Source of the DNA: Escherichia phage vB_EcoM-G3G7
Sequence record: MZ234040.1
Direction: 5' to 3' (one strand)
Length of the DNA: 64,000 nt
Shown here: piece after piece, positions 4,049-39,966 of the stretch
Layout of the letters: every line of letters begins with the position of its first letter
Position numbering within the stretch: position 1 is the first letter of the stretch
The notes under the pieces: model-generated
Database searches by the model: none
Told to the model about the DNA's origin: nothing
Seen by the model: the letters and a program-made list of their open reading frames with translations, nothing else
Position numbers and translations under genes: made by a program

Positions 4049-5164
4049 TTAAACTTCTCTAAATTCCTGTCCAAACACTTTGCCAGTTTTAGAAGAGGCT
4101 TGTGTAGGAAGTACCATTATATCTGGAGGTGAAGCCGATTCACAGACATAATTAACGCGAATACCGTTGACGCCAAATTCGGCAGGTTTTGAAATGCCGC
4201 CATTTCTTGATACTTCAGAAAAACTTAAATTTCTCATGCCGCCTTGACCTGCTTGAGCAGTTCTTTGTGCATATATCGTAAATCCTACGGCGTTTTCTGG
4301 AACAACTACATAGTCTTCTTTTAATTCCCAAGACCCAGCTTGCCCAGTAAACTCAGCTTGGGTCGAGGAAATATATCCATTTGATGCATCATAAAAACGA
4401 ATGGATATGTTTGTAGTTCCAAGATCAAGTAAATCAGCATCAGCATATAACTGTGCTTTAAGATAAAGAACATCACCAGGAATTAAATTATAGTCAGAAA
4501 GTTTACTTATAGCAGCTGAAGTTGGCAATCGCGCAATTTCGTTATTAGTTCCACCAACTGCTGACATGAATTGCTCGACACTTTCATAAGTTCTTTTTGG
4601 AAATCCTGTCGCTCCGACGTCTTCTAAACTATCAAATACAACATCTAAAATAGTTTGATAATCATCTGTGCTTTTTCTATTACTTAGTTTAACATGCTCT
4701 AATGCAATAGCTCTTTTAGAAGAAGTATAAAAAGCAGCATATGATACGTCAAATCTTGACAATACTGAATCTGATGGAAAAACTGAAGTTCCTGCTCCCC
4801 TTAACCAAGATACCACTTCAGGAGGAAAATTAACCTTTCCGCTAGTTAATATAGCAACAAGTCTATTGTTTGACAAAGAATTCATGAAACTAACAAAAGC
4901 AGCTGATGTAGTATTATTTGAAGTAGAAAAAGCATATGACTTACTATCAACTAATGCTCCTGTAGAAGGGTCAAAAACTCTTAAATGAAGACCTGCACTA
5001 AATGTTTGATTTCCAACGGGATTATCCTGAAATTTAACATATGGCCCCGCAGTAGAAAGCGGGCAAGAACCCGCTATGCTTATTTTATATCTTACTGAAT
5101 TGCTTTCCGATAAAAATGGCGTTTGGACATATCCTTGTCCAAACTCTGCCATAAATTTTTCCAT
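4049..5164 (-). CDS. 35: long tail fiber hinge connector gp35
   Basis: 371-aa ORF, conserved position between genes 34 and 36; T4 gp35 is about 372 aa. Confidence 0.85.
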   Translation of the reverse strand: MEKFMAEFGQGYVQTPFLSESNSVRYKISIAGSCPLSTAGPYVKFQDNPVGNQTFSAGLHLRVFDPSTGALVDSKSYAFSTSNNTTSAAFVSFMNSLSNNRLVAILTSGKVNFPPEVVSWLRGAGTSVFPSDSVLSRFDVSYAAFYTSSKRAIALEHVKLSNRKSTDDYQTILDVVFDSLEDVGATGFPKRTYESVEQFMSAVGGTNNEIARLPTSAAISKLSDYNLIPGDVLYLKAQLYADADLLDLGTTNISIRFYDASNGYISSTQAEFTGQAGSWELKEDYVVVPENAVGFTIYAQRTAQAGQGGMRNLSFSEVSRNGGISKPAEFGVNGIRVNYVCESASPPDIMVLPTQASSKTGKVFGQEFREV

Positions 5165-5172
5165 AATACCTC

Positions 5173-8100
5173 TTATTCAATCCACTCAAATTTAACAGTT
5201 TTATTCACTGGGTCAGGAATAATGCGAACATTACCAATTCGCAAGAAATCGCGAATAGTAAGATTACCTATTATTCCATTATCAGATGGGATCGCTCCTA
5301 TATCTGAAGGTTGAGGAGGGTTACCTCCGTCAAATACCTGAACAAAACTTGACCAAGAGTTTTTGGTTTTCTGCCATGTACGTGTCCAGCGAGTGGTACG
5401 TGCTTCTGGGGTCGTTGGATAAGTAATCCAATCTTGGTAAAGTGAATCAAGTGTGTTACCAAACTGAGTCAATGTACCAGGAGATTTAACTTCTTCACCA
5501 CGTTCTAAGTATGGAAGTCCAGTCACTTCATTAGTTTTTTCAACCATTTTAAAATAACCCGGGAACTGGTTATAAGTGGCTGAATCATTAATATCGATTG
5601 ACCAGAATCCTACTGTATCAGATGTTGGCGCACGGGTATATAAATCAGAGGTTTTAGTACCCTGAGAACGAATTCTCGAGTTAACAGTCAAACCACCCGA
5701 ACTTATAGTAGCACCTTTTGCAATGATTAAGCTTTCACCAATCGTTACTTGGCCAGATGCATTATTAATAGCTAAAGGACGCAATCCATTAAATCCGCCA
5801 GTTTGATCACCCGATGCAGTAAGCATAAAATTCGTTACTGACCCATCATTGCGAACAATGAAACCATAATTTCCGTTAATAGCACGGAAAGCATTTGCGC
5901 TTCGAGAAATAATTTCACCAGTTGCAGTGACTGAATTACCAAATGTTGCTACACCATTTGCATTCAATGTTCCTGAAGCATTAACATTTATCGGTGTTAC
6001 TGTACCGTTGATATTAAATGTTATATTTCCAGCTTTATTACGCTGAGAATAAAAATGACTAGACGTTTCATCACTAACTTCAAATACGGTAGAACGTGTT
6101 GTGTCTGATTCCCCACTAAATTGATTTCCCCACACTCTGACTGTCATCGTTTGAGCCGGGTTTGTTCCAGTTTGAGGTCCTTTCTCAAAAATCAGACGAG
6201 TTGCCGTTCCAGTATTAGAAATAGTTAATGTACTATTTGCTGAAACTGATCCACCGAATGTAGCAGTACTAGATGATACAAGAGGGGCACTCAGATTCGT
6301 TTGTTGGGTTAAGGTTAGTGAACCATTAACTGTTTGTGCAATGTCCCTACGAATGAACTGGAGCGAATCTAGACCATCTAATAAATTACTATCTACAGCT
6401 TTTGCTTTTAATGGCAAATAATTTGCTAATACGCGATTTAATTCATATGGTGATACTGCATAACCATTTTTCTCATATGATTCTAATGGCTGTGTTGAAC
6501 CTACCGTATCATTACCAACAAACGTTAATGAACCAGAAGAAGTTTTAACAAACCCTCTTATCAGAGTAGTTGCTGCCCAAGTTGGTTCACTCTGCACAAT
6601 CCATTTTAAATTTTTTGGAGATACAGCAGTATTTGCTGACGTTCCAGTCACAGTTTCAGACTGAGTTGCAACTTTAATAACACCTTCTTGCGATTCGGTA
6701 GATTTAGTACCTAAAAGCTTTTTAGGAGTTATTAAAACATTATCTAATGTTCCTGCAGCAGCTTCAACTTGTGTAGCTACACGAAGTGTACCACGCTGTG
6801 TCTCATTTGCTTCAAGAATATTAAGGGTATAATGGTCCCAGAGAGTTCCTGATTCAACTAATCCAGATAGAGCAACAACAGAAGTACGATCAGTACTATT
6901 AAATCTGGTTTTAATTTTTAATGGTGTAGAGATACGAGTATCGTCGACGCCTGCGTCGAATTCAACTTGCGTAGCAATTTCAGCTATACCACTTAAACTT
7001 TCAGTTGCTCTACGGTCATTTAAAGTTTTAGGAGTGACTGCACGAGTATAGTCAGTTCCTGTATTAACTTCACTTTGCGTAGCAATTTCAATTAAACCAA
7101 TTCTTCCATCAGTTGATGTCTTTTTATGTAACGTTTCTGGCGTTACAACCGCATTTGCCCATCCTTCTTGGCTTTGTCCAGCAATTACTTCACTTTCAAC
7201 TGCTAAAATTACTGCGCCTTGTTGCGTTGGAGTAGCTTTATACTGATCCAAAGCTTTAGGTGAAACAACTAAATTATTAGTGTTTTTATTATAAACATTC
7301 GTACCATTTAATTCACGACTAGAAGCTGGAGTAGCTCCTGCGGTAGATACAAAAGTTACAATACCCGATAATGTTTCAGAACCTTGACGAGCTTGAAGCT
7401 TTTTAGGAGTGATGATTGTAGTATCATCAGTACCTGTATTAGTTTCCTGCTGCGTAGCAATTTCAGCGACACCTCTGCGAGTTTCTGTAGCAGTTCTTTC
7501 ATTCAGCTTTTTAGGAGTGATGATAAGGTCATCTGCAAAAGAGAATGTGGTGTTCTGATTCACTTGAGCAGTAGTTGCTATTCTTGCAATACCTCTGCGA
7601 GTTTCTGTAGCAGTACGATTAGCTAACGTTTCTGGAGTAATTGCCAATTCTTTTTGCGGAGAATTTTCTAAATCAGCATTTGCTTGAGCTTGTGTAGCTA
7701 AAGCAATTACGCCTAATCTTGCTCTAGTAGAATTATTTAAAGAATCGACTCTTTCAACTGTTGGAACGTTTTGCTGTACAACCCAGTATTTTCCATCAGA
7801 ATCTTCTATATAAGCAAGTTGCAAAACTGGTACATAATTAGTTTCACCGTTAAAAACTAATTCTTGAACTGTTACCCATTCAGCTTCAGGCGGATATTCT
7901 GAACGTTTTGGGAATTGCAGCAATTGAACTGAAGAAGCAATTTTATCTTCACCAGCAGCTTTGATTTTAACTGTTTGTCCTTTTCTCATGTAATTCATGG
8001 AAATTTTAACAGTATCACCAACAGAAATATCAGTCGGAAGCTGAAGTTCAATTGTTTGGGTTGTTCCATTATTCGCGCCAAATACCATGACTTCTTCATT

Positions 8101-32539: not shown

Positions 32540-32808
32540 TGTTTGTTGTTCACACTATTTATGAAAATGAAGGTAATACTACACGTGATTACGGTCACGT
32601 AAATCAATTTTTTAGATGCAATCCAGAATTCCGAGCTCAAAAAGACGAACGAATTTTTAAAAAATGTGTAGAGCAAGGTTTCATTTACGTCAAGCACTGG
32701 ATGCAAGGAAATAAAGTTAGAACCACGTACCACAGGTCTTTGACTGAGCTTAATGATGAATTGATTTATAATAGAGCTGTAAACCAAACTCTAAAGGATG
32801 AACAATGA
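32539..32808 (+). CDS. small early protein (89 aa), upstream of DNA ligase
   Basis: ORF with TAATG coupling to the upstream stop and ATGA coupling to gene 30. Confidence 0.5.
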   Translation: MFVVHTIYENEGNTTRDYGHVNQFFRCNPEFRAQKDERIFKKCVEQGFIYVKHWMQGNKVRTTYHRSLTELNDELIYNRAVNQTLKDEQ

Positions 32809-34268
32809 TTCTTAAAATTCTGAACGAAATAGCATCTATTGGTTCAACTAAGCAGAAGCAAGCAATTCTTGAAAAGAATAAAGATAATGAATTGCTTAAA
32901 CGAGTATATCGTCTGACTTATTCTCGTGGGTTACAGTATTATATCAAGAAATGGCCTAAACCTGGTATTGCTACCCAGAGTTTTGGAATGTTGACTCTTA
33001 CTGATATGCTTGACTTCATTGAATTCACGTTAGCTACTCGGAAATTGACTGGAAATGCGGCAATTGAAGAATTAATTGGTTATATTACTGACGGTAAAAA
33101 AGATGATGTTGAAGTTTTGCGTCGAGTGATGATGCGAGACCTTGAATGTGGTGCTTCAGTATCTATTGCAAACAAAGTTTGGCCAGGTTTAATTCCTGAA
33201 CAACCTCAAATGCTCGCAAGTTCTTATGATGAAAAAGGCATTAATAAGAATATCAAATTTCCAGCCTTTGCCCAGTTAAAAGCTGATGGAGCTCGGTGCT
33301 TTGCCGAAGTCAGAGGTGATGAATTAGATGACGTTCGTCTTTTATCACGAGCTGGTAATGAATATCTAGGATTAGATCTTCTTAAGGAAGAATTAATCAA
33401 AATGACCGCTGAAGCCCGCCAGATTCATCCAGAAGGCGTGTTAATTGATGGCGAATTGGTATACCATGAGCAAGTTGAAAAGGAGCCAGAAGGCCTAGAT
33501 TTTCTTTTTGATGCTTATCCTGAAAACAGTAAAGCTAAAGAATTCGCCGAAGTAGCTGAATCACGTACTGCATCTAATGGCATCGCCAATAAATCTTTAA
33601 AGGGAACCATTTCTGAAAAAGAAGCACAATGCATGAAGTTTCAGGTCTGGGATTATGTACCGTTGGTAGAAATATACGGTCTTCCTGCATTTCGTTTGAA
33701 ATATGATGTACGTTTTTCTAAACTAGAACAAATGACATCAGGCTATGATAAAGTAATTTTAATTGAAAACCAGGTAGTAAATAACCTAGACGAAGCCAAG
33801 GTAATTTATAAAAAGTATATTGACCAAGGTCTTGAAGGTATTATTCTCAAAAATATCGATGGATTATGGGAAAATGCTCGTTCAAAAAATCTCTATAAAT
33901 TTAAAGAAGTAATTGATGTTGATTTAAAAATTGTAGGAATTTATCCTCACCGTAAAGACCCTACTAAAGCAGGTGGATTTATTCTTGAGTCAGAGTGTGG
34001 AAAAATTAAAGTAAATGCTGGTTCAGGCTTAAAAGATAAAGCCGGTGTAAAATCGCATGAACTTGACCGTACTCGCATTATGGAAAACCAAAATTATTAT
34101 ATTGGAAAAATTCTAGAGTGCGAATGCAACGGTTGGTTAAAATCTGATGGCCGCACTGATTACGTTAAATTATTTCTTCCGATTGCGATTCGTTTGCGTG
34201 AAGATAAAACTAAAGCTAATACATTCGAGGATGTATTTGGTGATTTTCATGAGGTAACTGGTTTATGA
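32805..34268 (+). CDS. 30: ATP-dependent DNA ligase
   Basis: 487-aa ORF MILKILNEIASIGSTKQKQAILEKNKDNELLKRVYRLTYSRGLQYYIKKWPKPG... with adenylation lysine motif FAQLKADGARC; matches T4 DNA ligase. Confidence 0.95.
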   Translation: MILKILNEIASIGSTKQKQAILEKNKDNELLKRVYRLTYSRGLQYYIKKWPKPGIATQSFGMLTLTDMLDFIEFTLATRKLTGNAAIEELIGYITDGKKDDVEVLRRVMMRDLECGASVSIANKVWPGLIPEQPQMLASSYDEKGINKNIKFPAFAQLKADGARCFAEVRGDELDDVRLLSRAGNEYLGLDLLKEELIKMTAEARQIHPEGVLIDGELVYHEQVEKEPEGLDFLFDAYPENSKAKEFAEVAESRTASNGIANKSLKGTISEKEAQCMKFQVWDYVPLVEIYGLPAFRLKYDVRFSKLEQMTSGYDKVILIENQVVNNLDEAKVIYKKYIDQGLEGIILKNIDGLWENARSKNLYKFKEVIDVDLKIVGIYPHRKDPTKAGGFILESECGKIKVNAGSGLKDKAGVKSHELDRTRIMENQNYYIGKILECECNGWLKSDGRTDYVKLFLPIAIRLREDKTKANTFEDVFGDFHEVTGL

Positions 34269-34453
34269 AAGCTTACTTAGAAACAATTGTCATTGCTCAA
34301 AAAGAAGGTGGAGATGTTTCTACTTCTGTATCACAAGTCATTCTCGAATTTGTAGATGCATACGCTTATAATAAATTCACAGAAACATTTGATGCCTATG
34401 AAAAAGGTCCAAAGTTTGAAATATACCGTACTCTCTTACCACTAGATTATTAA
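34265..34453 (+). CDS. small protein (62 aa) downstream of ligase
   Basis: ATGA overlap with the gene 30 stop; followed by a terminator. Confidence 0.5.
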   Translation: MKAYLETIVIAQKEGGDVSTSVSQVILEFVDAYAYNKFTETFDAYEKGPKFEIYRTLLPLDY

Positions 34454-34475
34454 AGGCCTTCGGGCCTTTAATTTT
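34453..34475 (+). terminator. intrinsic terminator
   Basis: AAGGCC-TTCG-GGCCTT hairpin followed by TAATTTT. Confidence 0.7.
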
Positions 34476-34505
34476 ATAAATAGAATAAACACTAGAGAGG
34501 CTATG

Positions 34506-36560
34506 ATGGAACTTATTACAGAATTATTTGACGAAGATACTACTCTTCCGATTACAAACTTAAATCCAAAGAAGAAAATACCGCAAATTTTTTCAGTTCA
34601 TGTTGATGATGCAATTGAACAACCAGGCTTTCGTTTATGTACCTATACATCTGGAGGTGATACTAATCGCGATTTAAAGATGGGCGATAAAATGATGCAT
34701 ATTGTTCCTTTTACATTAACTGCTAAAGGTTCAATTGCTAAATTAAAAGGTCTTGGTCCAAGCCCAATTAATTATATCAATTCAGTTTTTACTGTTGCGA
34801 TGCAAACAATGCGTCAGTATAAAATTGATGCCTGTATGCTTCGTATTCTTAAGTCTAAAACCGCTGGTCAAGCTCGACAAATTCAAGTTATTGCTGATAG
34901 ACTTATCCGTAGTCGTTCAGGTGGCAGATACGTCCTTCTTAAGGAACTCTGGGATTACGATAAAAAGTATGCATATATTCTTATACATCGCAAAAATGTA
35001 TCACTAGAAGACATTCCGGGAGTTCCGGAAATTAGTACTGAGCTCTTTACTAAAGTTGAATCGAAGGTCGGTGATGTTTATATCAATAAAGATACTGGAG
35101 CTCAAGTAACTAAAAATGAGGCAATTGCAGCATCTATTGCGCAAGAAAATGATAAACGTTCTGACCAAGCTGTAATCGTTAAAGTTAAAATTTCCCGTAG
35201 AGCAATTGCGCAAAGTCAATCATTGGAATCTTCTAGATTTGAAACGCCGATGTTTCAAAAATTTGAGGCTTCAGCAGCAGAATTAAATAAACCTGCTGAC
35301 GCTCCTTTAATTTCTGACGCTAATGAATTAACTGTTATTTCTACTTCAGGATTTGCATTAGAGAATGCTCTTAGTAGTGTTACAGCTGGAATGGCATTCA
35401 GAGAAGCTTCTATAATTCCTGAAGATAAAGAATCTGATGTTAATGCAGAAATAAAAAATAAAGCTTTAGAAAGATTACGAAAAGAATCTATTACTTCAAT
35501 AAAAACTTTAGAAACTATTGCTTCTATAGTTGATGATACTTTAGAAAAATATAAAGGTGCTTGGTTAGAAAGAAACATTAACAAGCATTCGCATTTAAAT
35601 CAAGATGCTGCGAATGAGTTAGTACAAAATTCTTGGAATGCAATAAAAACAAAGATTATTCGAAGAGAATTGCGTGGATATGCTCTTACCGCTGGATGGT
35701 CACTACATCCTATAGTCGAAAATAAAGATTCATCTAAATACACACCGGCACAAAAACGCGGAATTCGTGAATACGTAAGTTCAGGATATGTAGACATAAA
35801 TAACGCTCTTTTGGGATTATATAATCCAGATGAGCGTACAAGTATTTTGACAGCATCTGATATAGAAAAAGCTATTGATAATTTAGATTCTGCCTTTAAA
35901 AATGGTGAACGATTACCAAAAGGTATTACTTTGTATCGTTCACAACGAATGTTACCTTCAATATATGAAGCACTGGTAAAAAATCGAGTTTTTTATTTTA
36001 GAAATTTTGTGTCAACATCATTATATCCAAATATTTTTGGTACCTGGATGACTGATTCATCTGTGGGTGTTTTACCAGACGAAAAGCGTTTAAGTGTTTC
36101 TATTGATAAAACTGATGAAGGACTAGTAAATTCTAGCGATAATTTAGTTGGAATTGGATGGGTTATTACTGGGGCTGATAAAGTCAATGTTGTTTTACCA
36201 GGTGGAAGTTTAGCACCTTCAAATGAAATGGAAGTCATTTTGCCACGTGGATTAATGGTCAAAGTTAATAAAATAACCGATGCATCTTACAATGATGGAA
36301 CAGTTAAAACTAACAACAAGCTTATTCAAGCTGAAGTTATGACCACAGAAGAACTCACCGAATCGGTAATTTATGACGGTGACCGTCTAATGGAAACCGG
36401 CGAAGTAGTTACAATGACAGGTGATATTGAAATAGAAGACAGAGTTGATTTTGCATCATTTGTTTCATCAAATGTTAAACAGAAAGTAGAATCATCTCTT
36501 GGAATTATTGCGTCTTGTATAGATATTGCAAACATGCCTTACAAGTTCGTTCAAGGATAA
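34506..36560 (+). CDS. alt: Alt, virion-packaged mono-ADP-ribosyltransferase (modifies host RNA polymerase)
   Basis: About 684-aa ORF MELITELFDEDTTLPITNLNPKKKIPQIFSVHVDDAIEQPGFRLCTYTSGGDTNRDLKMGDK...; ART catalytic signature R (LYRSQ), STS (FVSTSL), E-x-E (EMEVILPRG). Confidence 0.9.
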   Translation: MELITELFDEDTTLPITNLNPKKKIPQIFSVHVDDAIEQPGFRLCTYTSGGDTNRDLKMGDKMMHIVPFTLTAKGSIAKLKGLGPSPINYINSVFTVAMQTMRQYKIDACMLRILKSKTAGQARQIQVIADRLIRSRSGGRYVLLKELWDYDKKYAYILIHRKNVSLEDIPGVPEISTELFTKVESKVGDVYINKDTGAQVTKNEAIAASIAQENDKRSDQAVIVKVKISRRAIAQSQSLESSRFETPMFQKFEASAAELNKPADAPLISDANELTVISTSGFALENALSSVTAGMAFREASIIPEDKESDVNAEIKNKALERLRKESITSIKTLETIASIVDDTLEKYKGAWLERNINKHSHLNQDAANELVQNSWNAIKTKIIRRELRGYALTAGWSLHPIVENKDSSKYTPAQKRGIREYVSSGYVDINNALLGLYNPDERTSILTASDIEKAIDNLDSAFKNGERLPKGITLYRSQRMLPSIYEALVKNRVFYFRNFVSTSLYPNIFGTWMTDSSVGVLPDEKRLSVSIDKTDEGLVNSSDNLVGIGWVITGADKVNVVLPGGSLAPSNEMEVILPRGLMVKVNKITDASYNDGTVKTNNKLIQAEVMTTEELTESVIYDGDRLMETGEVVTMTGDIEIEDRVDFASFVSSNVKQKVESSLGIIASCIDIANMPYKFVQG

Positions 36561-36563
36561 ATC

Positions 36564-38621
36564 ATGGAACTTATTACAGAATTATTTGACGGCGCTTCGG
36601 CGCCGGTTGTTAACTTAAATCCTAAGCATAAAATACCACAAATTTTTGCTATTCAAGCCGGCGAAGAAAGCGTGCTTCCTGGATTTAGATTTTGTACATA
36701 CACCTCTGGTGGTGATACGAATAAAAACGTTAAGCCAGGCGATAAAATGATGCATATCGTAATGATAGGTGTTAATGAGAAACTATCATTAGTTAAGCTT
36801 AAAAACTTGGGTGGAAATCCAATTGGTGTCATTAATGCCGTTTTTGATACTGCTCTTCAAACAATGAAACAGTATAAAATCGACGCATGCCTATTCCGCG
36901 TACTAAAAAGTAAAACAAATGGCGCAGCTCGTCAAATGCAAGTTATTGCTGACCGTTTAGTACGTACTAAAGGAGCAGGTCGATATGTTCTTTTAAAGGA
37001 AATCTGGGACTATGATAAGAAATATGCATATATTATGGTTTACCGTAAAAATGCCAATTTAGAAGACATTCCAGGTGTACCTCCTATTTCAACTGAGTTA
37101 TTCACAAAAGTTGAATCAAAGGTCGGTGATGTTTATGTAGACGTTAAAACAGGAAATGCTGTTCCTAAAGCTGTCGCTGTTGCTGCTTCTATTGCTTTAG
37201 AAAATGATAAGCGCACGGACCAAGCTGTTATTCAGAAAACTAAAATCAGTCGTCGATTAGCAGCACAAGCTCAATATTCTACTGTTGATGCTTCACTTCA
37301 GGGTGATAGCTTTGCTGCCAAGAAATATCAAGAGTTTGAATCTAAAGTTCCGGTATATAAAGCAGAAGGTCCGATGAACTCTGGCGTTATCCAGATTGGT
37401 TCAAACTTCAGCAAAGGAGCTATCGGTGGTATGAGAAGTGCTTCTCGTTTTAAATCTAACGATTATGAACTAGAAAGCTTCCGAAATCATATTGCATTGG
37501 CCCATGCACGTTTACGTGATCCATCTATCAAGTTGCAGAGCGATATAACATATCAAGGTTCTCAAGAATATTTAAAGAATAAAGAATTCTTTGATTATAA
37601 AACTGATAAAATTTTAAGCGATCTTGCTGACATTAATATTTCTAATAGCTTTGATGTTATTAAGAAAATTATCAATGATTTGGTTAAAGGTTCTAAAGCC
37701 ACGCCAGATGAAAAGACAGCTATTATTCAATTTGTAATGAATGGCATTTATAAATTGATTAATGAATCTGCTGCCCAGGCATATGAATACGCAAGCACCG
37801 AAGTAGCTCCAAAAGGACTGACTCAGGCTGAATCTGATGTAATTGAAGATTATTGTGCAGATTCATATGTTGAAATGAACTCGTTCCTTTTGGGTAAACC
37901 AGATTCTACCCGTGAAGAATACATGGAACGAGCTATTAAGCACATCGAGACGTTAGATTCTGCCTTTGCCAAAGGATCAGTTCTTCCTCCAGGAACTACA
38001 CTTTACCGTGGGCAAGAAGTTACCTTTAAAACTTTGCGTCATAACATTGAAAATAAAATGTTCTATTTCAAGAACTTCGTATCCACATCGCTTAAACCAA
38101 ATATCTTCGGTGAGCATGGTAAAAACTATATGGCTCTAGATGATTCTGGCGCAGTATTTTCTGGCGAAGGAGAAGGTTCCGTTGATACAGAAGATTTGAT
38201 GCATATGGGTAGTCATTCTACATATGCTAATGAAGATGCTGAAACTAGCGTGGGTATGGTAATTAAAGGAGCTGAGCGAATCAAAGTTATCGTTCCAGGT
38301 CATTTATCAGGATTTCCATCAGAAGCTGAAGTTATTCTACCACGTGGAATTTTACTGAAGATTAATAAAGTAAGTACGTACTTTATGAAAGAAACTGCTT
38401 ATAACAAGTATCTAATCGAAGGTACAATCGTTCCTCCTTCTGAACAATTAGAAGAATCAGTATATGATGGAGACCATCTAATGGAAACTGGTGAAGTTCG
38501 TCCAATGGCTGGATTTAATCAATTCCTTGTAGAAGAATCAAAAGAAGAGGAAAATGAAGTTTCTCAAATCTTGGCTTCTTTGGTTAACATCAACGGAATG
38601 TCTAAAAAGTTCAAAATGTAG
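36564..38621 (+). CDS. Alt paralog (second Alt-like ADP-ribosyltransferase)
   Basis: 685-aa ORF sharing the N-terminal MELITELFD... and C-terminal catalytic region (LYRGQ, FVSTSL, EAEVILPRG) with Alt, but with a divergent middle region. Confidence 0.85.
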   Translation: MELITELFDGASAPVVNLNPKHKIPQIFAIQAGEESVLPGFRFCTYTSGGDTNKNVKPGDKMMHIVMIGVNEKLSLVKLKNLGGNPIGVINAVFDTALQTMKQYKIDACLFRVLKSKTNGAARQMQVIADRLVRTKGAGRYVLLKEIWDYDKKYAYIMVYRKNANLEDIPGVPPISTELFTKVESKVGDVYVDVKTGNAVPKAVAVAASIALENDKRTDQAVIQKTKISRRLAAQAQYSTVDASLQGDSFAAKKYQEFESKVPVYKAEGPMNSGVIQIGSNFSKGAIGGMRSASRFKSNDYELESFRNHIALAHARLRDPSIKLQSDITYQGSQEYLKNKEFFDYKTDKILSDLADINISNSFDVIKKIINDLVKGSKATPDEKTAIIQFVMNGIYKLINESAAQAYEYASTEVAPKGLTQAESDVIEDYCADSYVEMNSFLLGKPDSTREEYMERAIKHIETLDSAFAKGSVLPPGTTLYRGQEVTFKTLRHNIENKMFYFKNFVSTSLKPNIFGEHGKNYMALDDSGAVFSGEGEGSVDTEDLMHMGSHSTYANEDAETSVGMVIKGAERIKVIVPGHLSGFPSEAEVILPRGILLKINKVSTYFMKETAYNKYLIEGTIVPPSEQLEESVYDGDHLMETGEVRPMAGFNQFLVEESKEEENEVSQILASLVNINGMSKKFKM

Positions 38622-38650
38622 TTTACAAGTCCCTCGTGTTGTGTTATAGT
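38621..38650 (+). promoter_or_regulatory. T4-type early promoter; part of a 52-bp repeat also present at 22675-22726
   Basis: GTTTAC at 38621-38626, 18-nt spacer, TATAGT at 38645-38650. Confidence 0.55.
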
Positions 38651-38681
38651 AGTCTTACTGACATAACATGAGGAACACAAA

Positions 38682-38972
38682 ATGAAATCTTCTTTGCGCT
38701 TTTTAGGTCAAGAACTTGTAGTTGAAGGAGTTATTCCTGCTGATAATGCTTTTAATGAAGCAGTTTACGATGAATTTATCAAAATTTTTGGAACAGATAA
38801 AAAGTTCGGAATTTTTCCTTCTGAAAATTTTTCAAAGCCAGAACAGACTGAAAGTATTTTCCAAGGTGTAGTAACAGGTAAATTTGAGTCAGAAGCTCCG
38901 GTAAAAATTGAAGTTTATATTGAAGACAGTTTAGTTGCTTCAGTTTCTGCTTTCATTTCATTCCGTAAATAA
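38682..38972 (+). CDS. small protein (96 aa), unknown function
   Basis: ORF preceded by CATGAGGA SD context; followed by a bidirectional terminator. Confidence 0.55.
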   Translation: MKSSLRFLGQELVVEGVIPADNAFNEAVYDEFIKIFGTDKKFGIFPSENFSKPEQTESIFQGVVTGKFESEAPVKIEVYIEDSLVASVSAFISFRK

Positions 38973-38978
38973 AAATAT

Positions 38979-38996
38979 GGGGACCGAAAGGTCCCC
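38979..38996. terminator. bidirectional hairpin terminator between the early (+) block and late gene 54 (-)
   Basis: GGGGACC-GAAA-GGTCCCC flanked by A/T runs on both sides. Confidence 0.75.
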
Positions 38997-39000
38997 ATTG

Positions 39001-39966
39001 TTATATTGCTCCTAATATTTTACTCTGCGAATTGACAATTCCTGTCATAGTATTAATATTTGAAATGCTTCCTGTAGTTCCCCCTAATCTACTAAGTCGT
39101 GAAAGCGAATTAGATAGTCCAGTAACACCTCCACTATTTCCGAGAACGCTTTGAATACCATTTATAGTAGCAGATTCAAGCCATTCAAGGGCAGCTTGTC
39201 TATCAACTGCTCCAGCCTGCATCACTCTATACGCAAAAGTAACATCAAATGTAGTTATTTGGTTATCTCCATCATATGATAACTCAGGAGCGCTTACGGA
39301 CACTGGAATGCATCCAGTGAACATCACCGCAGTATGTGGTAATCCATTGCGAGAATGAAGATTAACCTGAATATCTGCCTCGACATCTTGCGGCAAAGCA
39401 CGCAATCCAGTTACTGGGTCTTGAACAGCGTTAACCCAGTCTTGCATTGCACGATAGTTACAAGCTTCTGAATCCATTCTGAATGAAATAACCAAAGGGT
39501 CTAATTCTCTCCCAGTTATACGAATATTAGGAGAATTATAGTTCCAGTCAGTTTCATAGGATAATCTATTCTCTGGCATTTTTACAGAGTATATCATCAA
39601 TCCAGATGAGTTATATGCCACGTTAAAGAAGTCAATTAAATATGTACCAACTGTAAATGAGCCTAATAAACTTTGAACTGTACGTTGACTCATGGCACCA
39701 ATAAGATATTTACTAACCCCTGATTTTCTTATCAGTTTTTGTGTGCCAGCTGTAATTAGCGTAGTAATTCCCTGATTAATATCGCCTTGAGTTAATCCTA
39801 ACCAATCTGAATTTAGGCCCAAGTTATTATAAGAAAAGTTGCTAATTGAACTTATCAACGAAGAGCTTTTAGTTGATGGAGTTGTAGCAAAAACACAGCT
39901 GAACATATTATTACGTTGGAAATCTGCGTTTATTGCTTGATTATTAAATTCCTCTAAAGAATACAT
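39001..39966 (-). CDS. 54: baseplate tail-tube initiator gp54
   Basis: 321-aa ORF at the T4 gene 54 position and size. Confidence 0.88.
   Translation of the reverse strand: MYSLEEFNNQAINADFQRNNMFSCVFATTPSTKSSSLISSISNFSYNNLGLNSDWLGLTQGDINQGITTLITAGTQKLIRKSGVSKYLIGAMSQRTVQSLLGSFTVGTYLIDFFNVAYNSSGLMIYSVKMPENRLSYETDWNYNSPNIRITGRELDPLVISFRMDSEACNYRAMQDWVNAVQDPVTGLRALPQDVEADIQVNLHSRNGLPHTAVMFTGCIPVSVSAPELSYDGDNQITTFDVTFAYRVMQAGAVDRQAALEWLESATINGIQSVLGNSGGVTGLSNSLSRLSRLGGTTGSISNINTMTGIVNSQSKILGAI

Follow-up and report, generated by a model that had tools for sequence, protein, structure and literature searches.

The question raised by the genome of Escherichia phage vB_EcoM-G3G7 is whether a second intact copy of alt, the gene for the ADP-ribosyltransferase (ART) of T4-like phages, lying directly behind the first, is an unusual acquisition of this phage or an ordinary constituent of its group. 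The DNA analysed here, referred to as the window, is a stretch of 64,000 nucleotides from record MZ234040.1 and is a segment of a Tequatrovirus (T4-like) genome. A preliminary description, made from the letters alone, had reported two adjacent intact open reading frames (ORFs) of 684 and 685 amino acids, and had treated the second as an unusual extra on the ground that T4 has a single alt. The coordinates of the pair are confirmed: ORF1 (alt, encoding Alt1) occupies 34506..36560 and ORF2 (alt2, encoding Alt2) 36564..38621, both intact on the + strand with a gap of 3 nt between them. The listed frame of ORF1 opens at 34503 (MMELITE...), but the ATG equivalent to that of T4 lies at 34506 and gives a product of 684 residues. 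Alt1 is the T4-type allele, 99% identical in amino acid sequence to T4 Alt, and Alt2, an intact second paralog of 685 residues, is 99-100% identical to the proteins named 'Alt2' in the phages Bas37 and Bas39. The answer, set out below, is that alt2 is a conserved, functional paralog of T4 alt and that no new duplication is involved; the observation is real and, at the level of annotation, ordinary.

The history of the gene can be read from T4 itself. The T4 genome (NC_000866) is collinear with the window from 32714 to 36911 at 96.7% nucleotide identity, a tract that includes the start of alt2 (36564-36911, ~97% identity), and resumes at 38602. The interruption is bounded on the + strand by two copies of a 9-bp direct repeat, CTAAAAAGT. 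The left copy (36903..36911) covers alt2 codons ~114-116 and forms the left breakpoint of the T4 deletion, whilst the right copy (38602..38610) lies 12 nt before the alt2 stop codon and forms the right breakpoint. The deletion between these copies removes 1,699 bp and is out of frame. A further lesion is located in a run of five adenines at alt2 codons 54-55 (36723..36727, + strand), where T4 has four, a single indel at 36723. This frameshift splits the T4 remnant into alt.-1 and alt.-2, and only codons 1 to ~116 of the gene are retained. The PHROG families of both fragments match Alt2 more strongly than Alt1: that of alt.-1 matches Alt2 residues 1-56 at 2e-40 (1e-21 for Alt1) and that of alt.-2 matches Alt2 residues 62-117 at 3e-38 (2e-19 for Alt1). 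The two T4 genes (products NP_049810 and NP_049809) are orthologous in DNA to alt2, the T4 copy being deleted and frameshifted and the window copy full-length; they are the remnant of a full-length alt2. The T4 record describes alt.-1 and alt.-2 as reflecting a duplicated initial portion of alt, as do Nolan et al. 2006 (PMC1524935). As the window carries the full-length gene, however, the duplication was itself full-length and the T4 state is a secondary loss, which makes T4 a natural alt2-null. The statement that T4 has a single alt is true today, but only through the loss of its second copy. The same deletion is not confined to T4: an 84-nt probe spanning the junction is covered over at least 80% of its length in 91 phage records, including T4 stocks, RB55, RB59, HY03, SG1 and ACG-C40.

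The central 1.69 kb of alt2, the segment absent from T4, is present at 90-100% nucleotide identity in 401 phage records, with carriers that include T2, RB51, RB5/RB6, AR1 and the BASEL phages Bas37 and Bas39. The two-gene state is the usual one in Tequatrovirus and T4 is the exception. Because that state is common, and because T4 holds a remnant, the assumption that two intact copies are out of the ordinary was wrong. The gene is annotated as 'ADP-ribosyltransferase Alt2' in Bas37 (bas37_0032) and Bas39 (bas39_0033), and as 'Alt-like RNA polymerase ADP-ribosyltransferase' in RB51 and T2, the T2 record adding the note 'alt.-1'. Public records already contain the gene, name it as an Alt paralog and include the remnants in T4. 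ORF2 is, in other words, an annotated alt-adjacent gene of close relatives, but one without known function there, and neither copy lacks the catalytic residues.

That the gene is maintained as a protein-coding unit is evident from its substitution pattern. In comparisons among seven genomes, the ratio of non-synonymous to synonymous substitution rates (dN/dS) of alt2 is 0.020-0.054 at a synonymous divergence (dS) of 0.13-0.28, and the frame of 685 codons is intact in all seven; alt and alt2, each taken separately, have dN/dS below 0.1. From these low ratios it is clear that alt2 is under strong purifying selection and encodes a working protein, and the low alt2 ratios, together with the intact frames, rule out a pseudogene. 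An assembly artefact or chimera is likewise ruled out, since the 5.1-kb region at 34000-39100 recurs at 100% identity in six independent complete genomes, that of vB_EcoM_JB75 among them. A recent duplication specific to vB_EcoM-G3G7 was also considered and is excluded by the 41-44% identity of the paralogs, by their placement in separate clades and by the occurrence of the pair in ~400 genomes. In a neighbour-joining tree, a rough one without bootstrap support, Alt1 and Alt2 fall in different clades, each with other sequences, and JS10- and KM16-like phages have proteins that are 45-51% identical to Alt2. The separate clades and these more distant proteins together indicate that the duplication is older than the genus Tequatrovirus.

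The two proteins align from end to end at 41% identity (BLASTP, E=1e-158), with conservation distributed very unevenly along four parts, all encoded on the + strand. Behind a propeptide of residues 1-6 (36564-36581), the conserved N-domain of Alt2 (residues 7-238, 36582-37277) is followed by a divergent helical middle (residues 239-412, 37278-37799), the ART domain (residues 413-631, 37800-38456) and a C-terminal tail (residues 632-685, 38457-38618). Identity to Alt1 is 68% over residues 1-238, 18% over the middle, 37% over the ART domain and 43% over the tail, and the suggestion that the two ORFs diverge in the middle is therefore borne out. Within the ART domain, the loop from the STS strand to the next strand (Alt2 residues 521-565) is only 21% identical, and the loop preceding the ExE motif reads SGFPSEAE in Alt2 and SLAPSNEME in Alt1. 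An AlphaFold2 model of Alt2 (mean predicted local distance difference test score (pLDDT) 78.9, predicted template modelling score 0.73) likewise falls into four parts, with an N-domain of alpha/beta type, a middle made up of helices only, the ART domain and the tail.

Both ORFs match PF03496 (ADPrib_exo_Tox) in Pfam, at 120.9 bits for ORF1 and 72.1 bits for ORF2 against a cut-off of 23.4, and each is covered over its full length (residues 1-685 in Alt2) by a match to PHROG 802, 'Alt-like RNA polymerase ADP-ribosyltransferase'. A further family, PF26846 (Tevenvirinae_ADPRT), is listed for P0001, the 99% identical cluster representative of Alt2, and for its relatives. The catalytic residues are kept in both proteins: R478, S503-T504-S505 and E574-x-E576 in Alt1, and R482, S507-T508-S509 and E587-A-E589 in Alt2. 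The corresponding codons of alt2 lie on the + strand within 38007..38330 (R482 at 38007-38009, S507 at 38082-38084, E587 at 38322-38324 and E589 at 38328-38330), and R482, S507, E587 and E589 are invariant across a family alignment of 55 sequences. The R-STS-ExE signature had been placed at the C-terminus; it is present in both copies, but at residues ~480-590, the last ~54-65 residues forming a separate tail. A profile of the family alignment, run against the PDB, matches C3-like toxins, Certhrax, Vip2 and iota toxin, with the YR and Q/ExE motifs aligned. No solved structure of Alt was found by a single-sequence PDB search, and the family profile reaches toxin ART domains only. The ART domain of Alt2 has the C3/Vip2/Vis fold, with the R-S-ExE set complete. 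The family is a small one, with 112 matches at E < 1e-3 among 1.84 billion representative proteins.

The two genes begin almost identically. The shared N-terminal MELITELFD is genuine, and from the ATG onwards alt and alt2 have the same first 28 nt. Over the slightly wider start regions, 34503-34533 and 36561-36591, 30 of 31 nt match, and all synonymous sites of MELITELFD are the same, whilst the remaining N-domain DNA of the two genes is ~72% identical; the match suggests gene conversion or a constraint at the level of RNA. The N-domain itself offers a weaker lead, namely that in both paralogs it might be a GNAT-like module whose role goes beyond that of a packaging handle. A Pfam scan of the N-domain and middle alone, at E up to 10, returned nothing useful, CesA being sub-threshold at 15.5 bits against a cut-off of 29.1. 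Three distant proteins of 485-1,142 residues (P0199, P0217 and P0226) match the Alt N-domain only, over roughly residues 10-167, and the rest of each is free of recognisable Pfam domains. As they match only this part, the Alt N-domain may occur with non-ART partners.

The signals around the pair are those of late T4 genes. A terminator-like hairpin, AAAGGCCTTCGGGCCTTT, followed by a T-run at 34451..34475 on the + strand, 3' of alt.1, is recognised from its sequence, and the identical JB75 record annotates it as a rho-independent terminator; it parts the gene 30/alt.1 transcript from the alt block. It is followed by a match to the T4-type late promoter consensus, TATAAATA, at 34475..34482 (+ strand), 24 nt upstream of the ORF1 start. 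This is the sole copy on the + strand between 28663 and 45262, the window as a whole containing 18 matches against 8.6 expected. A Shine-Dalgarno sequence for ORF2, AAGGA, lies within the last codons of ORF1 (36553..36557, + strand), 6 nt before the ORF2 ATG. A search for an internal alt2 promoter gave no late-promoter match, and sigma-70-like matches were at chance level (21 against 18.8 expected). The block is closed by a strong bidirectional terminator, a hairpin (38977..38998) that separates alt.-3 from convergent gene 54 and is annotated on both strands in JB75. With a single late promoter, a gap of 3 nt, AAGGA inside ORF1 and a terminator after alt.-3, alt and alt2 are almost certainly co-transcribed late from one late promoter, as is expected for proteins loaded into proheads.

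Both ORFs also carry the signals of prohead processing. In T4, mass spectrometry has shown that the gp21 prohead protease cuts Alt after ITE-6 and LTE-619, with the loss of 63 C-terminal residues (PMC5694885). The proposal that the shared N-terminal region includes a processing signal is upheld, as ITE-6, one of the sites at which gp21 cuts T4 Alt, is present in both ORFs. Alt1 has ITE-6 and LTE-619, and Alt2 has ITE-6 and LEE-631 at positions aligned with the Alt1 sites. The P1 glutamates E6 and E631 are each at least 90% conserved in the 55-sequence alignment, and the C-terminal site of Alt2 falls in a predicted disordered linker (pLDDT < 50, residues 629-659). These motifs, conserved glutamates and modelled linker suggest that Alt2 is processed and packaged as Alt is. 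The computed masses of the two precursors are near-equal, 75,950.71 Da for Alt1 (34506-36557) and 75,950.72 Da for Alt2 (36564-38618), despite their low overall identity, which is presumably a coincidence. Unprocessed Alt1 and Alt2 would be indistinguishable by intact mass, but their predicted mature forms differ, at 68.1 and 69.1 kDa, respectively.

Of the two genes, it is alt that varies. The T4-type allele found in T4 and in the window encodes 682-684 residues, and T2, RB51, Bas37, Bas39, REP3 and NBG2 have an allele of 697 residues that is 72-73% identical to T4 Alt. The first ~250 and last ~100 residues of these two classes are almost identical, and it is the interior, comprising the middle and most of the ART domain, that diverges; in the window this interior maps to 35250-36300. 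Between the classes dN is 0.21, and each class is under purifying selection. Further alleles exist at 61-62% identity. The middle region of the T4-type allele is present in 174 records, and every combination of alt allele and alt2 state is common, including that of the window, a T4-type alt with an intact alt2. Beside alt, alt2 is near-invariant, and the 'accessory' copy is the better conserved one. There are also single hybrid alt genes (P0003-P0006; L009 and L010) in which an Alt1-type N-terminus is joined to an Alt2-type body; their crossovers fall at four different places, near residues 58, 118, 180 and 232. On one metagenome contig (L010, positions 5001-7061; ERZ27282683 k99_7153), no alt gene other than the hybrid lies between alt.1 and alt.-3, an arrangement implying unequal crossing-over within a tandem pair. 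The hybrids come from metagenome and Logan assemblies and might in principle be chimeras of assembly.

What, then, would such a protein do? T4 Alt, of which each head contains ~40 copies, is injected together with the phage DNA. Once in the host it modifies Arg265 in the alpha subunit of RNA polymerase as well as other host proteins (PMC2988021). The reading towards which we lean is that Alt2 is probably a second head-packaged, gp21-trimmed and injected arginine mono-ADP-ribosyltransferase, with a target set at least partly unlike that of Alt. On this reading Alt2 would be made late and would enter the prohead by the route taken by Alt, where gp21 would trim it after ITE-6 and LEE-631 to a mature protein of ~69 kDa. 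The mature protein would enter the next host together with the ejected DNA and would use nicotinamide adenine dinucleotide (NAD+) to mono-ADP-ribosylate arginines of host proteins, as its ExE motif suggests. A different choice of targets, at least in part, would be conferred by the helical middle and the divergent ART loops. For Alt2 we infer each of these properties, namely packaging, cleavage, injection and enzymatic activity. By analogy with T4 Alt, which counters Mokosh type I and MazF, the targets of Alt2 could possibly include a defence system or toxin.

Published transposon data are relevant to this proposal. In a HIDEN-SEQ study (10.1101/2025.11.20.689424), bas37_0032, which is 99% identical to ORF2, was classed as 'Intermediate' in essentiality, with transposons in 116 of 164 TA sites and a mean of 44.5 reads per site; the corresponding mean for alt was 203.6, and flanking non-essential genes including alt had ~170-200. 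These values give a hint that loss or truncation of Alt2 is costly to the phage, and the intermediate fitness cost seen for alt2 insertions in Bas37 would be accounted for by a second injected effector, if the proposal is true. The same preprint reports that T4 Alt is required to evade Mokosh type I, and that the Bas37 Alt allele (bas37_0033) is no substitute; Alt2 is not discussed in it, the data being found in its supplementary tables only.

Several points weigh against this assignment of function. The sole basis for supposing that the targets of Alt2 are unlike those of Alt, plausible as this is, is sequence divergence. Some 91 natural and laboratory phage records, T4 among them, are without alt2, and since these phages grow without it the gene is dispensable on common hosts. 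Single-copy hybrid alt genes also exist. A literature search found no virion proteomics of an Alt2-bearing phage and no functional paper on Alt2, only mentions at the level of annotation; the main text of the BASEL paper does not mention Alt. In the three HIDEN-SEQ comparisons covered here, of six made with Bas37, no conditional depletion of Alt2 is seen (log2 fold changes of 0.11, 0.19 and 0.00), and the low baseline count of insertions in alt2 could be due to truncated products that are toxic, and not to the loss of its function.

Other explanations of the second gene have been weighed against the same evidence. Alt2 might be a redundant copy, kept for dosage or as a back-up, that is packaged and injected like Alt and acts on what Alt acts on, Arg265 of RNA polymerase alpha included. 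The two proteins do have their architecture, processing motifs and catalytic residues in common, T4 thrives without Alt2, and the hybrids of an Alt1 N-terminus with an Alt2 body suggest that the two are partly interchangeable. The ART domains are nevertheless only 37% identical and the middle regions 18%, the distance tree groups each paralog with other sequences rather than with its neighbour, and each gene is separately constrained. Moreover, even two Alt alleles are not interchangeable, the Bas37 protein failing to replace that of T4 against Mokosh type I, so that near-identical targets are unlikely across the larger divergence between Alt and Alt2; redundancy is accordingly given a low probability. 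A quite different possibility, that ORF2 is a duplicate in decay, or one without enzymatic activity, that is heading for the T4 state and has no function or a structural one only, draws on the deleted version held by T4 and ~90 other records and on the recombinational instability of the tandem that the hybrids reveal. It is already contradicted by the selection analysis, in which low dN/dS accompanies appreciable synonymous divergence and all seven frames are intact; the central segment persists at ≥90% nucleotide identity in ~400 records, the catalytic residues are invariant, and the Bas37 transposon class is intermediate in essentiality. Decay is, on these grounds, highly improbable.

The remaining explanation accepts an active enzyme but not its delivery. 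Alt2 would then act as a late ART in the cell that makes it, or would modify phage proteins or nucleic acids, or would have a non-protein substrate such as RNA or a small guanidino compound. Expression from a late promoter only is consistent with such a role, and a non-protein substrate is brought to mind by the best structural match to Alt2, Vis, which according to the title of entry 4xzk was crystallised with agmatine, a small guanidino compound. T4 ModB, of the same ART clade, is described in a preprint as using unusual donors and substrates in RNAylation (10.1101/2021.06.04.446905). A protein that never enters the prohead is, however, hard to reconcile with an N-terminal propeptide identical to that of Alt even in its nucleotides, with two gp21 P1 glutamates that are conserved family-wide and with a C-terminal site located in a disordered linker, and this explanation is considered unlikely. 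A second injected effector with partly different targets remains the reading that we prefer.

The flanking genes are arranged as in T4. DNA ligase gp30 (32805-34268, + strand) and alt.1 (34265-34453, + strand; Pfam Phage_blade) precede the pair. Downstream, the final gene of the block is the ortholog of T4 alt.-3 (38682..38972, + strand), so annotated from T4, whose product of 96 residues matches DUF5498 (PF17602, 213 bits); beyond it lie the convergent baseplate genes 54 and 48. Upstream of alt.-3 is a sigma-70-like promoter, TTTACA-17-TATAGT with an extended -10 TG (38622..38650, + strand), the best such site at 10/12, identified as a consensus match only. In T4, read-through extensions of Alt.-3 give escape from the CmdTAC defence system (PMC11618068), and bas37_0031, the Bas37 ortholog of alt.-3, is depleted in one HIDEN-SEQ comparison (log2 fold change -2.70, adjusted p 0.02).

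As a sequence feature the pair is of small weight, the gene being annotated in hundreds of genomes and alt duplications having been remarked upon since 2006. What is added here is an exact map of the T4 lesions, in which a frameshift of 1 nt is combined with the loss of 1,699 bp between repeats of 9 bp, and the finding that, of the two putative injected-ART genes, the model phage lacks the better conserved. It is because T4 lacks alt2 that the gene is uncharacterised, and it is a gene with strong constraint and with a fitness signal in published transposon data. The gene alt itself exists as at least two non-interchangeable alleles, alt2 being nearly invariant. A broader consequence can be put forward only tentatively: the picture of T-even takeover, built on an alt2-null T4, may miss a second injected effector of ~80% of Tequatroviruses, with host targets of its own.

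In relation to known systems, the nearest counterpart of the pair is T4 Alt (NP_049811), a head-packaged and injected mono-ADP-ribosyltransferase, of which ORF1 is the ortholog. ORF2 resembles T4 Alt in length, in its four-part architecture, in the R-S-ExE residues, in the ITE-6 and LxE motifs, in the late promoter and in its position between genes 30 and 54, and differs from it in sequence, most of all in the middle and ART domain. The Alt2 proteins of Bas37 and Bas39, and those of RB51, T2 and ~400 other Tequatrovirus records, are the same gene at 99-100% amino acid identity, in the same position and with the same 685 residues; in T2, RB51, Bas37, Bas39, REP3 and NBG2, however, it is paired with the 697-residue alt allele, and in the window with the T4-type one. 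Duplications of alt have also been described in 44RR (ORF187c/188c) and RB49 (ORF183c) (PMC1524935) and in JS98, Bp7, Ac42 and ZZ1 (PMC4177764). These phages, like the window, have tandem alt paralogs, full-length or split, beside baseplate genes, but belong to other genera and their copies are far more divergent; the rough distance tree suggests that these copies are orthologous to Alt2 rather than Alt1. The R-S-E toxins of the C3-like, Vip2, iota and Vis types are secreted proteins of 200-460 residues that act on eukaryotic or other cells, whereas the Alt proteins have in addition an N-domain of 240 residues, a helical middle and protease-removed termini for delivery in the phage head. Those traits of the T-even Alt family that can be read from sequence, namely the ART domain with its R-S-ExE residues, the N-domain, both protease motifs, the late promoter and the location between genes 30 and 54, are all found in or around ORF2.

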